Of a stretch of DNA of 64,000 bases, positions 23,093 through 62,879 are shown piece by piece. How positions within the stretch are numbered: position 1 is the first letter of the stretch; the number at the start of each line of letters is the position of its first letter. The notes beneath the pieces were generated by a model. It did no database searches and was not told where the DNA came from. It saw only the letters and a list, made by a program, of their open reading frames with translations. The DNA is taken from NCBI RefSeq assembly GCF_044647545.1, contig NZ_CP172818.1, one strand, 5' to 3'. The stretch comes from Escherichia coli. Lineage in GTDB: Bacteria; Pseudomonadota; Gammaproteobacteria; Enterobacterales; Enterobacteriaceae. A program made the position numbers and the translations under genes.

Positions 23093-23424
23093 AATCATTC
23101 GCCTCTTTAAATATATAAATTGTAATGAAACTCCTGTTTTACAACTATTAAAGAATTTTACTTCATCTAATTCATAGTTAGCCGGGCGGGATGCGTCAAT
23201 GTCTTTATTTCTATTAATATGATAAATATCAAACAATGTTTAATGTCATTATGGCTGATGCTTCTATTCTATTTTTTAGCCGGGTGATATTTTTCATTTC
23301 TGCTGGATGAGCGTCGTCGCCAGAAGGCGCGTGAGCACAGGATAAGAGAACGAAAAATCAGCAGTCTATGCAGCGACAAATATTGATAGCCTGAATCAGT
23401 ATTGATCTGCTGGTAAGAACAGAC

Positions 23425-54714: not shown

Positions 54715-55565
54715 TTAAAGCATGGCTCTGTGCAATGGGGAAAGATTAACGCCTTTCGCCACAAAGCCATTGAGCCATTCCGGGGCTTGCTCTAGCACCT
54801 GGCGGGCTTCAGACTCTGTATCAAATTCAGCAAAGACACAGGCCCCTGTCCCAGTCAGGCGCGACGGGGCGTATTCTAACAGCCAGGAAAGCACCGCATC
54901 AACCTCGCGAAAACGTTTTCTTGCGATAACCTCGCAATCATTGCTGAATTCACATTTTAGCAACGTTTCTATTGACCTTTTTGGCGTATTGCGCGGGAGT
55001 TCAGGATCTTTAAAAATCACCGGTGTCGGAATACTTACACCAGGGTGCGCCACCAGATACCACTTCTCTGGCGGATCCACCGGCGTTAGTATTTCACCAA
55101 CGCCTTCGGCAAACGCGGCATGCCCCCGAACAAAGACAGGAACATCTGCGCCCAGCGTCAGTCCCATTTCCGCCAGCTCATCCATGCTTAGCCCGCATTG
55201 CCAGAGATGATTTAATGCCACCAGGACCGTCGCGGCATTGGATGAACCACCGCCGAGACCGCCGCCCATCGGCAAACGCTTGTCAATGCTGATATTCGCA
55301 CCGCTTCCCGTCGGAAGGCGCCCGCTGTCTGCCGCAGTTTTCATCAATAACCGCGCTGCGCGAACGATCAGGTTATCTTCATGTTCCACGCCTTCAACGG
55401 GCGTTAACAGACGAATATCCCCATCGTCACGAAGCTCAATGTTGATGGTGTCGCCGTAATCAAGAAACTGAAACAGCGTTTGCAGCGTGTGGTAACCATC
55501 CGCACGCTGACCGGTAATGTATAAAAACAGATTAAGTTTTGCCGGAGAGGGCCACTGTGTCCGCA

Positions 55566-55566
<1 letters not shown>
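54715..55566 (-). CDS. ispE: 4-diphosphocytidyl-2-C-methyl-D-erythritol kinase IspE
   Basis: 283-aa ORF. Confidence 0.95.
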
Positions 55567-56258
<692 letters not shown>

Positions 56259-56402: not shown

Positions 56403-57659
56403 ATGACCCTTTTAGCACTCGGTATCAACCATAAAACGGCACCTGTATCGCTGCGAGAACGTGTATCGTTTTCGCCGGATAAGCTCGAGCAGGCGCTTGA
56501 CAGCCTGCTTGCGCAGCCGATGGTGCAGGGCGGTGTGGTGCTGTCGACGTGTAACCGCACAGAACTTTATCTCAGCGTTGAAGAACGGGATGACCTGCAA
56601 GAGGCGCTCATTCGCTGGTTGTGTGATTACCATAATCTCAACGAAGACGATCTGCGTAATAGCCTCTACTGGCATCAGGATAACGATGCGGTCAGTCATT
56701 TAATGCGCGTTGCCAGTGGGCTTGATTCTCTCGTCCTTGGCGAGCCGCAGATCCTCGGTCAGGTTAAAAAAGCGTTTGCCGATTCGCAAAAAGGTCATAT
56801 GAAGGCCAGAGAACTGGAACGCATGTTTCAGAAATCTTTCTCTGTGGCGAAACGCGTTCGCACTGAAACAGATATCGGTGCCAGTGCTGTGTCTGTCGCT
56901 TTTGCGGCTTGTACGCTGGCGCGGCAGATCTTTGAATCGCTCTCTACGGTGACGGTACTGCTGGTGGGTGCGGGCGAAACCATCGAGCTGGTGGCGCGTC
57001 ATCTGCGTGAACACAAAGTACAGAAGATGATTATCGCCAACCGCACTCGCGAACGTGCCCAAATTCTGGCAGATGAAGTCGGCGCGGAAGTGATTGCCCT
57101 GAGCGATATCGACGAGCGTCTGCGCGAAGCCGATATCATCATTAGTTCCACCGCCAGCCCGTTACCGATTATCGGGAAAGGCATGGTGGAGCGGGCATTA
57201 AAAAGCCGTCGCAACCAACCAATGCTGCTGGTGGATATTGCCGTTCCGCGCGATGTTGAGCCGGAAGTTGGTAAACTGGCGAATGCTTATCTTTATAGCG
57301 TTGACGATCTGCAAAGCATTATTTCGCACAATCTGGCGCAGCGTAAAGCCGCAGCAGTTGAGGCGGAAACTATAGTCGCTCAGGAAACCAGCGAATTTAT
57401 GGCGTGGTTGCGTGCACAAAGCGCCAGCGAGACCATTCGCGAGTATCGCAGCCAGGCAGAGCACGTTCGCGATGAGTTAACCGCCAAAGCGTTAGCGGCC
57501 CTTGAGCAGGGCGGCGACGCCCAAGCCATTATGCAGGATCTGGCATGGAAACTGACTAACCGCCTGATCCATGCGCCAACGAAATCACTTCAACAGGCCG
57601 CCCGTGACGGGGATAACGAACGCCTGAATATTCTGCGCGACAGCCTCGGGCTGGAGTAG
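56403..57659 (+). CDS. hemA: Glutamyl-tRNA reductase HemA
   Basis: 418 aa from ATG 56403 ([21 protein letters not shown]...). Confidence 0.95.
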
Positions 57660-57700
57660 CAGTACATCATTTTCCTTTTTTACAGGGTGCATTTACGCCT

Positions 57701-58783
57701 ATGAAGCCTTCTATCGTTGCCAAACTGGAAGCCCTGCATGAACGCCATGAAGAAGTTCAGGCGTTGCTGGGTGACGCGCAAACTATCGCCGACCAGGAAC
57801 GTTTTCGCGCATTATCACGCGAATATGCGCAGTTAAGTGATGTTTCGCGCAGTTTTACCGACTGGCAACAGGTTCAGGAAGATATCGAAACCGCACAGAT
57901 GATGCTCGATGATCCTGAAATGCGTGAGATGGCGCAGGATGAACTGCGCGAAGCTAAAGAAAAAAGCGAGCAACTGGAACAGCAATTACAGGTTCTGTTA
58001 CTACCAAAAGATCCTGATGACGAACGTAACGCCTTCCTCGAAGTCCGTGCCGGAACCGGCGGCGACGAAGCGGCGCTGTTCGCAGGCGATCTGTTCCGTA
58101 TGTACAGCCGTTATGCCGAAGCCCGCCGCTGGCGGGTAGAAATCATGAGCGCCAGCGAGGGTGAACATGGTGGTTATAAAGAGATCATCGCCAAAATTAG
58201 CGGTGATGGTGTGTATGGTCGTCTGAAATTTGAATCCGGCGGTCATCGCGTGCAGCGTGTGCCTGCTACGGAATCGCAGGGGCGTATTCATACTTCTGCT
58301 TGTACCGTTGCGGTAATGCCAGAACTGCCTGACGCAGAACTGCCGGACATCAACCCGGCAGATTTGCGCATAGATACTTTCCGCTCGTCAGGGGCGGGTG
58401 GTCAGCACGTTAACACCACCGATTCGGCAATTCGTATTACTCACTTGCCGACAGGGATTGTTGTTGAATGTCAGGACGAACGTTCACAACATAAAAACAA
58501 AGCTAAAGCACTTTCTGTACTTGGTGCTCGCATCCACGCTGCAGAAATGGCAAAACGGCAACAGGCCGAAGCGTCTACCCGTCGTAACCTGCTGGGGAGT
58601 GGCGATCGCAGCGACCGTAACCGTACTTACAACTTCCCGCAGGGGCGCGTTACCGATCACCGCATCAACCTGACGCTCTACCGTCTGGATGAAGTGATGG
58701 AAGGTAAGCTGGATATGCTAATTGAACCGATTATCCAGGAACATCAGGCCGACCAACTGGCGGCGTTGTCCGAGCAGGAATAA
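57701..58783 (+). CDS. prfA: Peptide chain release factor RF1
   Basis: 360-aa ORF with GGQ motif. Confidence 0.95.
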
Positions 58784-59616
58784 TGGAATATCAACACTGG
58801 TTACGTGAAGCAATAAGCCAACTTCAGGCGAGCGAAAGCCCGCGGCGTGATGCTGAAATCCTGCTGGCGCATGTTACCGGCAAAGGGCGTACTTTTATTC
58901 TCGCCTTTGGTGAAACGCAGCTGACTGACGAACAATGTCAGCAACTTGATGCGCTACTGACGCGTCGTCGCGATGGTGAACCTATTGCTCATTTAACCGG
59001 GGTGCGAGAATTCTGGTCGCTGCCGTTATTTGTTTCGCCAGCGACCTTAATTCCGCGCCCGGATACGGAGTGTCTGGTGGAGCAGGCACTGGCGCGGTTG
59101 CCTGAACAACCTTGCCGTATTCTCGATCTCGGGACGGGTACCGGGGCGATTGCGCTGGCGCTGGCTAGCGAGCGCCCGGACTGCGAAATTACCGCTGTAG
59201 ATCGTATGCCAGATGCTGTCTCTCTGGCGCAACGTAATGCTCAGAATCTGGCGATCAAAAACATCCATATTCTGCAAAGCGACTGGTTTAGCGCGCTAGC
59301 CGGGCAGCAGTTTGCGATGATTGTCAGTAATCCGCCGTATATTGACGAGCAGGACCCACATCTTCAACAAGGCGATGTCCGCTTTGAGCCGCTCACTGCG
59401 CTGGTTGCGGCAGACAGTGGAATGGCAGACATCGTGCATATCATCGAACAGTCGCGTAACGCGCTGGTATCCGGCGGCTTTCTGCTTCTGGAACATGGCT
59501 GGCAGCAGGGCGAAGCGGTGCGACAGGCATTTATCCACGCGGGATATCATGACGTCGAAACCTGTCGGGACTATGGTGATAACGAGCGCGTAACGCTCGG
59601 CCGCTATTATCAATGA
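58783..59616 (+). CDS. prmC: Release-factor glutamine methyltransferase PrmC (HemK)
   Basis: 277-aa ORF with NPPY motif; start overlaps prfA stop. Confidence 0.95.
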   Translation: MEYQHWLREAISQLQASESPRRDAEILLAHVTGKGRTFILAFGETQLTDEQCQQLDALLTRRRDGEPIAHLTGVREFWSLPLFVSPATLIPRPDTECLVEQALARLPEQPCRILDLGTGTGAIALALASERPDCEITAVDRMPDAVSLAQRNAQNLAIKNIHILQSDWFSALAGQQFAMIVSNPPYIDEQDPHLQQGDVRFEPLTALVAADSGMADIVHIIEQSRNALVSGGFLLLEHGWQQGEAVRQAFIHAGYHDVETCRDYGDNERVTLGRYYQ

Positions 59617-60005
59617 CAAGTTTTTCTACACTGCTTAGTGTTCATCTTATTAGTATCGCGCTTTCTGTTGGGCTATTAACCTTACGTTTCTGGCTACGTT
59701 ATCAGAAGCATCCACAGGCATTTGCGCGCTGGACGCGCATTGTGCCGCCGGTTGTCGATACGCTGTTATTGTTAAGCGGCATTGCGTTGATGGCTAAAGC
59801 GCACATCCTGCCATTTTCCGGGCAGGCACAGTGGCTGACTGAAAAGCTGTTTGGAGTTATCATTTATATCGTTTTGGGTTTTATTGCACTCGATTATCGT
59901 CGTATGCACAGTCAGCAGGCGCGCATTATTGCCTTCCCGCTGGCGTTGGTGGTGCTGTACATCATCATTAAACTCGCCACCACAAAAGTACCGTTACTGG
60001 GGTAA
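59613..60005 (+). CDS. sirB2: Inner membrane protein SirB2 (YchQ)
   Basis: 130-aa ORF; 4-nt overlap with prmC. Confidence 0.85.
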   Translation: MTSFSTLLSVHLISIALSVGLLTLRFWLRYQKHPQAFARWTRIVPPVVDTLLLLSGIALMAKAHILPFSGQAQWLTEKLFGVIIYIVLGFIALDYRRMHSQQARIIAFPLALVVLYIIIKLATTKVPLLG

Positions 60006-60008
60006 GTC

Positions 60009-60818
60009 ATGAGATCGTTAGCTGATTTCGAATTTAATAAAGCGCCATTGTGCGAAGGCATGATCCTGGCTTGCGAAGCAATCCGCCGCGATTTTCCCTC
60101 GCAAGATGTTTACGACGAACTGGAGCGTCTCGTTAGTCTGGCGAAGGAAGAAATCAGCCAGCTTCTGCCTTTAGAAGAGCAGCTGGAAAAACTGATCGCG
60201 CTGTTTTACGGCGACTGGGGATTTAAAGCCTCACGCGGCGTTTATCGTCTTTCCGATGCATTATGGCTGGACCAGGTGTTAAAGAATCGACAGGGCAGTG
60301 CGGTATCATTAGGTGCCGTTTTATTATGGGTCGCGAATCGTCTCGATTTGCCACTGCTGCCGGTGATTTTCCCTACGCAGCTGATATTGCGCTTTGAATG
60401 TCCGGATGGCGAAATTTGGCTGATTAATCCTTTTAACGGTGAATCGTTAAGCGAACATATGCTGGACGTATGGTTAAAGGGAAATATCAGCCCGTCGGCG
60501 GAACTGTTTTATGAAGACCTTGATGAAGCTGATAACATTGAGGTAATCCGCAAATTGCTGGATACACTCAAAGCCTCGTTGATGGAAGAAAATCAGATGG
60601 AGCTGGCGCTACGTACCAGCGAAGCTTTATTACAATTTAACCCGGAAGATCCCTATGAAATTCGCGATCGCGGGTTGATTTATGCGCAACTGGATTGCGA
60701 ACACGTTGCGTTGAACGATTTAAGTTATTTCGTTGAACAGTGTCCGGAAGACCCGATCAGCGAAATGATCCGTGTGCAAATAAATAACATCGCGCATAAA
60801 CATATTGTGCTGCATTAA
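60009..60818 (+). CDS. sirB1: SirB1 (YchA)
   Basis: 269-aa ORF. Confidence 0.85.
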   Translation: MRSLADFEFNKAPLCEGMILACEAIRRDFPSQDVYDELERLVSLAKEEISQLLPLEEQLEKLIALFYGDWGFKASRGVYRLSDALWLDQVLKNRQGSAVSLGAVLLWVANRLDLPLLPVIFPTQLILRFECPDGEIWLINPFNGESLSEHMLDVWLKGNISPSAELFYEDLDEADNIEVIRKLLDTLKASLMEENQMELALRTSEALLQFNPEDPYEIRDRGLIYAQLDCEHVALNDLSYFVEQCPEDPISEMIRVQINNIAHKHIVLH

Positions 60819-60844
60819 TTAATCGACATTTTACTCAAGATTAA

Positions 60845-61708
<864 letters not shown>

Positions 61709-61785
61709 TCTTTTTTGCCTGAAAACTAAAGCCTTAGCGTTCTGCGTTAAGGTTTTTTTCATGGGTGCCGGATACAAAAAAGGCC

Positions 61786-61856: not shown

Positions 61857-61964
61857 TTACTTCCGGTTACGCCACCAGCTGACAATCACTGCGGTAATAA
61901 TTCCCGCCAGGATCGGTGCTGCCAGGTCGTGCCAGAAAGTCATGGCAAACTGCGCGAGCGTCAT
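61857..61964 (-). CDS. ldr: Type I toxin Ldr, copy 1 (35 aa)
   Basis: Encodes MTLAQFAMTFWHDLAAPILAGIITAVIVSWWRNRK; which K-12 paralog (ldrA/B/C) is not resolved. Confidence 0.85.
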   Translation of the reverse strand: MTLAQFAMTFWHDLAAPILAGIITAVIVSWWRNRK

Positions 61965-62139
61965 ATAGCCGCCTTGTTGTAATGACAACATTTTGCGGCT
62001 ATTCTTGAATTGTTCTGGTTCAAGATTAGCCCCCGTTCTGTTGTCAGGTTGTACCTCTCAACGTGCGGGGGGGTTCTCTTTCCAGCAACCAATGCCACCA
62101 GGGATAAAGCCCCCGCAACATTGCGCCTCACCGGATAAC

Positions 62140-62599: not shown

Positions 62600-62707
62600 T
62601 TACTTCCGGTTACGCCACCAGCTGACAATCACTGCGGTAATAATCCCCGCCAGGATCGGTGCCGCCAGGTCGTGCCAGAAAATCATGGCAAACTGCGCGA
62701 GCGTCAT
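62600..62707 (-). CDS. ldr: Type I toxin Ldr, copy 2 (35 aa)
   Basis: Encodes MTLAQFAMIFWHDLAAPILAGIITAVIVSWWRNRK. Confidence 0.85.
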   Translation of the reverse strand: MTLAQFAMIFWHDLAAPILAGIITAVIVSWWRNRK

Positions 62708-62879
62708 ATAGCCGCCTTGTTGTAATGACAACATTTTGCGGCTATTCTTGAATTGTTGATGGTTCAAGATTAGCCCCCGTTCTGTTGTCAGGTTTTACCT
62801 CTCAACGTGCGGGGGTTTTCTCTTTCCAGCAACCAATGCCACCAGGGATAAAGCCCCCGCAACATTGCGCCTCACCGGA

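Follow-up and report, generated by a model that had tools for sequence, protein, structure and literature searches.

The coupling of prfA and prmC translation in Escherichia coli has been reported experimentally. In a passage of Saito et al. 2020 that cites Heurgue-Hamard 2002, prfA-prmC is counted among the gene pairs for which coupling has been "directly demonstrated" (PMC7538156). The same authors saw the prfA-prmC coupling again with their own reporter and found that ribosome recycling factor was not needed for coupling, so that the restart model is itself disputed (PMC7538156). Reinitiation in E. coli is strongly distance-dependent, with a loss of just 5-70% at +2 nt, and 707 of the 2,987 same-direction gene pairs of the genome (24%) lie at -8 to +6 nt (PMC10666635). 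Of 14 overlapping pairs examined by Huber et al. 2019, 13 proved to be strictly coupled (PMC6728339).

We analyzed a stretch of E. coli DNA of 64,000 nucleotides (the window), in which a reading of the letters and open reading frames (ORFs), made without database searches (the sequence-only reading), had noted overlapping stop/start junctions across prfA-prmC-sirB2-sirB1. The locus is, with high confidence, the standard E. coli hemA-prfA-prmC-sirB2(ychQ)-sirB1(ychA)-kdsA cluster, with prfA-prmC, prmC-sirB2, and sirB2-sirB1 junctions of -1, -4, and +3 nt, respectively. Its features, in window coordinates, are as follows.

56403 to 57659, plus strand: hemA, glutamyl-tRNA reductase, opening the cluster (position transferred from the RefSeq annotation of the corresponding E. 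coli DNA; ORF list)
57701 to 58783, plus strand: prfA, release factor 1, 360 amino acids, stop TAA at 58781 to 58783 (sequence, ORF list, RefSeq)
58776 to 58779, plus strand: AGGA, Shine-Dalgarno-like, within the final codons of prfA, 3 nt upstream of the prmC AUG (anti-SD duplex, -4.9 kcal/mol)
58781 to 58785, plus strand: junction 1, TAATG, prfA stop and prmC start sharing the A at 58783 (sequence read and script)
58783 to 59616, plus strand: prmC (hemK), release-factor N5-glutamine methyltransferase, 277 amino acids, stop TGA at 59614 to 59616 (ORF list, RefSeq)
59613 to 59616, plus strand: junction 2, ATGA, 4-nt overlap of the sirB2 start with the prmC stop (sequence read and script)
59613 to 60005, plus strand: sirB2 (ychQ), SirB-family membrane protein, 130 amino acids, stop TAA at 60003 to 60005 (ORF list, RefSeq)
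59999 to 60003, plus strand: GGGGT, Shine-Dalgarno-like, in the last sirB2 codons, its GGGG 6 nt before the sirB1 AUG (-6.0 kcal/mol)
60003 to 60011, plus strand: junction 3, TAA GTC ATG, with the 3-nt spacer GTC at 60006 to 60008 (sequence read and script)
60009 to 60818, plus strand: sirB1 (ychA), 269 amino acids, transglutaminase-like domain and TPR domain (ORF list, RefSeq)
60854 to 61708, plus strand: kdsA, closing the cluster, 35 nt past sirB1 (ORF list, RefSeq)
61729 to 61759, plus strand: hairpin with a trailing U-run downstream of kdsA, likely an intrinsic terminator ending the transcription unit (-19.7 kcal/mol, z = -4.5)

The names prfA, prmC, sirB2, and sirB1 given in the sequence-only reading were correct. 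All four products scored above the curated thresholds of their families along their entire length. In profile searches, the prfA product scored 585 bits against TIGR00019 (cut-off, 423; residues 1 to 358), which identifies it as RF1, and it contains PCRF and RF-1 domains with the GGQ motif within SGAGGQHVN. The prmC product scored 303 bits against TIGR03534 (cut-off, 199), which places it in the PrmC family, and carries PrmC_N (PF17827) and MTS domains with the NPPY motif as VSNPPYI. SirB2 matched NF007622 end to end (257 bits; cut-off, 190) as well as PF04247, and SirB1 matched NF008188 end to end (519 bits; cut-off, 391), with domains PF13369 and PF13371. The description of the last two products as small proteins suits SirB2 but not SirB1, which is near PrmC in size. 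The label "invasion regulator" carried by SirB1 and SirB2 is a name only.

A 3.3-kb stretch, beyond which most of hemA lies, was 100% identical to RefSeq-annotated E. coli DNA, where the starts and stops of prfA, prmC, sirB2, and sirB1 are exactly as read here. The region is 95-100% identical to the window in 5,419 of 5,426 complete E. coli genomes. Inspection of the junction sequences, the check that the sequence-only reading had proposed, established that all three tight junctions are real. The prfA/prmC overlap is 1 nt inside TAATGG at 58781 to 58786, with the prmC ATG at 58783 to 58785 (sequence, ORF list, and script), and the 4-nt prmC/sirB2 overlap joins the sirB2 ATG (59613 to 59615) to the prmC TGA. 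The sirB1 gene had been said to start 4 nt after sirB2, which holds only when counting to the first base of the ATG; the true spacer is 3 nt. The hemA-prfA gap, by comparison, is 41 nt.

With these spacings, the three pairs belong to the overlapping or close-spaced class (-4, -1, or up to about +6 nt). In 98 kb of an E. coli chromosome including the locus, overlaps occur in 9 of 49 same-strand neighboring pairs, with lengths of 1 nt (four pairs), 4 nt (four pairs), and 8 nt (one pair); these make up 9 of the 25 pairs spaced by 50 nt or less. The prfA-prmC-sirB2-sirB1 layout is ordinary: it consists of the commonest operon junction types in bacteria and is no less frequent than one would expect in an operon.

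We then compared the junctions across the 80 closest species, all Enterobacteriaceae; the counts for the two sirB2 junctions cover 73 of them. The 1-nt prfA/prmC overlap was found in 79 of 80 species, as TAATG in 50 and TGATG in 29. The -4 overlap between prmC and sirB2 (ATGA) was present in 56 of 73 species; the geometry differed in the other 17, with the overlap missing in 13, and in six species deletion has left only a remnant of sirB2. The geometry of this junction is therefore not strongly constrained. Between sirB2 and sirB1, the spacing was +3 in 60 of 73 species, +2 in 9, -4 in 3, and -1 in 1. Junction 1 is thus kept, and junctions 2 and 3 are common but changeable across species. A report on Pseudomonas aeruginosa describes sirB2 at another location, as a separate gene with a promoter of its own (PMC12721095). 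As sirB2 and sirB1 share one reading frame in E. coli, with TAA GTC between them, we also considered a SirB2-SirB1 readthrough fusion; this was rejected as a conserved feature, since the frame relation is broken in the 13 species with +2, -4, or -1 spacing.

The sequence-only reading had presented the junctions as translational coupling. This stands for prfA-prmC, given the published experiments, whereas for prmC-sirB2 and sirB2-sirB1 it is inferred from spacing. The likeliest alternative holds that genome compaction produced the overlaps passively, through loss and replacement of starts and stops, that each downstream gene has an independent ribosome-binding site, and that junctions 2 and 3 are uncoupled. 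Several observations agree with it: 1- and 4-nt overlaps are very common, the prmC/sirB2 geometry turns over between species, and the conservation of TRATG would follow from selection acting on these stop and start codons alone. Furthermore, 71 of 80 species have AGGA within 12 nt before the prmC start, and 77 of 79 have GGGG upstream of sirB1, the six with a sirB2 remnant among them. Because GGGG is kept even where sirB2 is deleted, sirB1 can probably also initiate independently. In contrast, no Shine-Dalgarno-like sequence was found upstream of E. coli sirB2 (best anti-SD duplex, -1.7 kcal/mol), which makes coupling at this gene plausible. Among ATGA-type junctions, the duplex was -1.7 kcal/mol in Escherichia and -2.5 kcal/mol in one Citrobacter, whereas in nearly all species without the prmC/sirB2 overlap, sirB2 is preceded by CAGGAG (duplex of about -6.9 kcal/mol). 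The gain of CAGGAG in the nonoverlapping species suggests that the overlap stands in for a ribosome-binding site at sirB2, and E. coli sirB2 probably depends on coupling. Together with the measured prfA-prmC coupling (PMC7538156) and the strict coupling of nearly all pairs tested by Huber et al., this makes passive compaction an unlikely account of the locus.

We also considered whether RNA structure hides the start codons. Predicted folding around the three start sites was not stronger than that of shuffled sequence (z of -0.55 to +0.34). The sirB2 AUG sits in a predicted hairpin, yet the start regions of sirB2 and sirB1 had a predicted accessibility of 0.40, close to the 0.42 of prfA, which has a true intergenic leader; over the 80 species, start-region accessibility was not clearly below that of prfA. 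These predictions count against the coupling reading. An Rfam search yielded no RNA family inside the cluster.

Consensus scans from prfA to kdsA revealed no convincing promoter or terminator signal; promoter-like sites were fewer than in shuffles, intragenic terminator-like sites were weak only, and the prfA-prmC-sirB2-sirB1 junctions have no room for signals between genes. A promoter within prmC or sirB2 would still be compatible with the sequence. The hairpin downstream of kdsA was matched by none of 200 shuffles. In the Burkhardt 2017 supplement, which lists only prfA, ychA, and kdsA of this cluster, prfA and ychA have comparable mRNA levels (121 and 117, respectively), kdsA reaches 359, and ribosome density falls from 103 for prfA to 39 for ychA. 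A search of the Mori 2021 supplement text for prmC and ychQ ribosome-profiling values gave no match.

Under the coupling reading, which we prefer, translation of prmC depends in part on that of prfA, as others have shown. A ribosome ending prmC at UGA would already be positioned on the sirB2 AUG, and SirB2 would probably be made through restart of this ribosome or through its opening of the local hairpin. Initiation at sirB1 would probably have two sources: ribosomes that have just finished sirB2, 3 nt upstream, and new ribosomes recruited through GGGG. The net effect would be one mRNA with a roughly fixed, stepped-down output of downstream proteins and no special regulatory device.

A more elaborate possibility is that the junctions sense termination activity, with slow termination stalling ribosomes on the next start and thereby resetting the output of PrmC, SirB2, and SirB1. 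The prmC UGA, read only by RF2, itself a PrmC substrate, overlaps the sirB2 AUG, and the prfA stop likewise overlaps the prmC AUG; this geometry would permit the same effect as in Bacillus subtilis. In that species, release-factor depletion lowers expression of downstream genes when the upstream stop is cognate and within 30 bp, and the rsbV/rsbW AUGA junction is highly RF2-sensitive (Lalanne et al. 2021, PMC8073009). This junction resembles prmC/sirB2 in being an overlap with an RF2-only upstream stop, but the likeness is in geometry only, and conservation of prmC/sirB2 is weak. The identity of the prfA stop varies (TAA in 50 species, TGA in 29, and TAG in 1), the RF1-specific codon is almost never used, and 13 of 80 species have TAA as the prmC stop; the loss of the overlap in some species and of sirB2 in others also speaks against a sensor, and Lalanne et al. 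themselves view such sensitivity as a by-product (PMC8073009). We therefore give a termination sensor hardly any credence. The claim that synthesis of PrmC, SirB2, and SirB1 is a read-out of release-factor activity through the stop/start chain is only marginally less improbable. If true, ribosomes awaiting RF1 or RF2 at the prfA stop, or RF2 at the prmC UGA, would mask the start codon that follows, linking termination capacity by feedback to the methyltransferase responsible for activating release factors.

Different start codons would have refuted the overlaps, as the sequence-only reading had pointed out, and we found no plausible alternative start. In a script scan, prmC had none within 45 codons, its frame was closed by a stop 60 nt upstream, and the next candidate in sirB2 was only at codon 44, leaving both genes with no usable alternative. 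The in-frame TTG (codon 14) and ATG (codon 18) of sirB1 were excluded, since residues 1 to 20 are the best-conserved part of the protein (mean conservation, 94%), with variation mostly at third positions. That the overlaps are annotation artefacts, with true starts further downstream, has in its favor only these two sirB1 codons and can be dismissed almost entirely, since N-termini align gap-free over 73 to 80 species and the family profiles match from residue 1.

The tight-junction layout is already known, being annotated in thousands of genomes, and matters little; the earlier description of it as known biology of low interest was borne out, the coupling at junction 1 having been published. 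In practice, when prfA or prmC is deleted or recoded, for instance in RF1-free strains for genetic code expansion, the last codons of the upstream gene should be kept because they hold the ribosome-binding motif and start codon of the next gene. In E. coli, sirB2 lacks a ribosome-binding site of its own. The 80-species comparison also offers a small worked example of how lineages use either an overlap without a Shine-Dalgarno sequence or a short spacer with one.

Compared with known systems, the locus is the same as the E. coli K-12 hemA-prfA-prmC operon (PMC7538156) in genes, species, and TAATG junction, with no difference at junction 1; that published work covers junction 1, and the sirB2 and sirB1 junctions are outside its scope. 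Junctions 1 and 2 are the two commonest motifs among the generic -4 (NTGA) and -1 (TRATG) pairs studied for termination-reinitiation (PMC6728339, PMC10666635, PMC12548453), and junction 3 falls within the -8 to +6 class of the close-pair literature, in which reinitiation is still efficient. Whereas this literature stresses subunits of heteromeric complexes, RF1 and PrmC are an enzyme-substrate pair. In the same chromosomal neighborhood, narGHJI is alike in having three successive junctions (-4, -4, and -1 nt), but, unlike the prfA cluster, its genes encode the subunits and chaperone of one enzyme. We know of no PrmC-SirB2-SirB1 complex. The three consecutive junctions of narGHJI indicate that runs of overlaps, such as the one described here, are routine.

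At 56.4-61.8 kb of the window, the plus strand carries the gene set hemA, prfA, prmC, sirB2 (ychQ), sirB1 (ychA) and kdsA. RefSeq annotation of identical E. coli sequence (for kdsA, of an E. coli record), with coordinates converted, places five of them as follows:

57701-58783 (+), prfA
58783-59616 (+), prmC
59613-60005 (+), sirB2
60009-60818 (+), sirB1
60854-61708 (+), kdsA

Several complete E. coli chromosomes are 100% identical to window 57600-60900, and of 5,426 complete E. coli genomes, 5,419 contain this segment at 95-100% identity across 80% or more of its length. RF1, PrmC, SirB2 and SirB1 match their curated NCBIfam models end to end and above the cut-offs, and all four proteins contain the expected Pfam domains. 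SirB1 is 269 aa long and is not the small protein that the sequence-only reading had made of it.

By direct base reading, prfA ends in GAA TAA (TAA at 58781-58783), and the last base of this stop is also the first of the prmC ATG (58783), giving TAATG with a 1-nt overlap. The end of prmC, CAA TGA (TGA at 59614-59616), meets the sirB2 ATG that begins at 59613, giving ATGA at 59613-59616 with four shared bases. Both overlaps lie where the sequence-only reading had put them. That reading also placed the sirB1 ATG correctly, at 60009, but its "4 nt after" sirB2 is really a 3-nt spacer: sirB2 ends in GGG TAA (TAA at 60003-60005), followed by GTC.

Different start codons had been named as what could remove the overlaps; we examined the candidates in prmC, sirB2 and sirB1, and the overlaps stand. 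The first 45 codons of prmC contain no ATG, GTG or TTG after the annotated start, and its frame is closed by a stop 60 nt upstream, while the earliest alternative in sirB2 is codon 44. In-frame alternatives exist in sirB1 at codons 14 (TTG) and 18 (ATG). Among the 80 closest species listed, however, SirB1 residues 1-20 have a mean conservation of 94%, versus 88% for the remainder, and nucleotide variation in these codons is concentrated at third positions. This indicates that codons 1-20 are translated, which rules out a start at codon 14 or 18.

In order to compare the junctions across Enterobacteriaceae, we ran a PrmC scan with one genome per species and extracted by script the orthologues and junctions of the closest 80 species listed (PrmC identity, 71-95%). 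Spacings in these species, with overlaps negative, were:

prfA/prmC: 1-nt overlap in 79 of 80 (TAATG in 50, TGATG in 29); 5-nt gap after a premature TAG in one
prmC/sirB2: ATGA in 56 of 73; otherwise -1 (2), +3 to +19 (13), -10 (1) and -14 (1)
sirB2/sirB1: +3 in 60 of 73; otherwise +2 (9), -4 (3) and -1 (1)
sirB1/kdsA: mostly 30-52 nt, up to 247 nt

The -10 case is probably a start-choice ambiguity. At four of the compared loci (L011, L041, L057 and L076), an inserted element, putatively an ERIC-like (enterobacterial repetitive intergenic) repeat, widens the sirB1-kdsA spacer from ∼36 to 223-247 nt. In six species listed (L040, L047, L050, L053, L063 and L069), sirB2 is cut to a remnant of 65-133 nt, apparently through three events, and all six retain TGGGGTA(A/G)G directly before the sirB1 ATG. 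In L063 and L069 (Enterobacter sichuanensis and E. mori), a 46-codon remnant ORF has ATGA overlaps with both the prmC stop and the sirB1 start; this resembles a relay ORF, although chance could also account for it.

Coupling of prfA and prmC, as proposed from the sequence, is correct and experimentally established according to the literature. Saito, Green and Buskirk, where they cite Heurgue-Hamard 2002, count this pair among those directly shown to be coupled, and saw coupling again with a reporter containing 120 nt from the end of prfA and 120 nt from the start of prmC; ratios for their five pairs ranged from 1.7 to 7.0, and coupling was independent of ribosome recycling factor (PMC7538156). 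In E. coli, prmC has AGGA 3 nt before its AUG (-4.9 kcal/mol against the anti-Shine-Dalgarno), and AGGA lies at most 12 nt upstream in 71 of the 80 species listed.

Coupling at prmC-sirB2 and sirB2-sirB1 is plausible from sequence features. Anti-Shine-Dalgarno duplex scoring found no Shine-Dalgarno for sirB2 in E. coli (best, -1.7) and the prmC stop codon lies on its AUG, so SirB2 would be made there by ribosomes fresh from prmC. One Citrobacter ATGA junction that was inspected has no Shine-Dalgarno either (-2.5), other ATGA species score up to -11.5, and nearly all species that lost the overlap have CAGGAG (about -6.9) before sirB2. This pattern, overlap without a Shine-Dalgarno versus spacer with one, supports the dependence of SirB2 on prmC ribosomes, short of proof. 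At the third junction, the 3-nt spacer may still allow efficient restart at sirB1; the published loss of restart at +2 nt is 5-70%, varying by pair (PMC10666635). GGGG lies 6 nt upstream of sirB1 in 77 of 79 species listed (-6.0 in E. coli), and its conservation and retention after sirB2 loss argue that sirB1 may also be open to independent initiation. Predicted RNA folding at the three junctions was nowhere better than in shuffled sequence, and predicted start-region accessibility of the junction genes was only slightly below that of kdsA; structure prediction favours no model over another.

That the junctions feed back on release-factor activity strikes us as very improbable. Release-factor depletion in B. 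subtilis does lower expression of genes just 3' of a cognate stop (PMC8073009), but the prfA stop is interchangeably TAA or TGA and almost never the RF1-specific TAG in the species listed, the prmC/sirB2 junction changes easily, and some lineages can do without sirB2. Since sirB2 and sirB1 share one frame in E. coli (TAA GTC ATG, 60003-60011), readthrough of the sirB2 stop would yield a SirB2-SirB1 fusion protein, which we rejected as a conserved feature because 13 of 73 species listed break the frame.

A single mRNA up to sirB1 with an extra kdsA promoter fits published mRNA levels (prfA, 121; ychA, 117; kdsA, 359); the translation efficiencies are 0.85, 0.34 and 1.31, respectively (Burkhardt 2017 supplement). 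Directly after kdsA lies a strong hairpin with a U-run (61729-61759, +; z = -4.5), which the consensus terminator scan did not list. Between kdsA and chaA are two Ldr toxin/Rdl antisense RNA type I toxin-antitoxin modules, detected with Rfam rdlD (73 and 84 bits) and, by script, the Ldr peptide:

61857-61964 (-) with 62012-62079 (+), first module
62600-62707 (-) with 62756-62821 (+), second module

The two modules are ∼743 nt apart; in the record that otherwise matches best, the distance is 535 nt. Upstream of the cluster, window 1-57599 is not colinear with NZ_CP033850.1 (E. coli FDAARGOS_497; 38,265 mismatches side by side), which has a ∼40-kb island from dhaR to ychF with integrases, large helicases and helix-turn-helix proteins. 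The small RNA C0299 matches at 23326-23404 (+; Rfam, 108 bits).

The junction observation is confirmed and already known; we found nothing outside known biology, as the sequence-only reading had judged. Next door, ispE and lolB, divergent neighbours of hemA (54715-56189, -), meet at a stop/start junction with one common base, of the same kind as those of the prfA cluster. On an E. coli chromosome that includes this locus, narGHJI has consecutive junctions of -4, -4 and -1, and over 98 kb around the locus 9 of 49 same-strand adjacent pairs overlap, by 1 nt in four cases, by 4 nt in another four and by 8 nt in one; these are 9 of the 25 pairs spaced by at most 50 nt. Tight junctions exceed chance in no interesting sense. 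Published counts for E. coli, with 707 of 2,987 same-direction pairs (24%) at -8 to +6 nt, -4 being commonest and -1 second (PMC10666635), agree with our 98-kb count.
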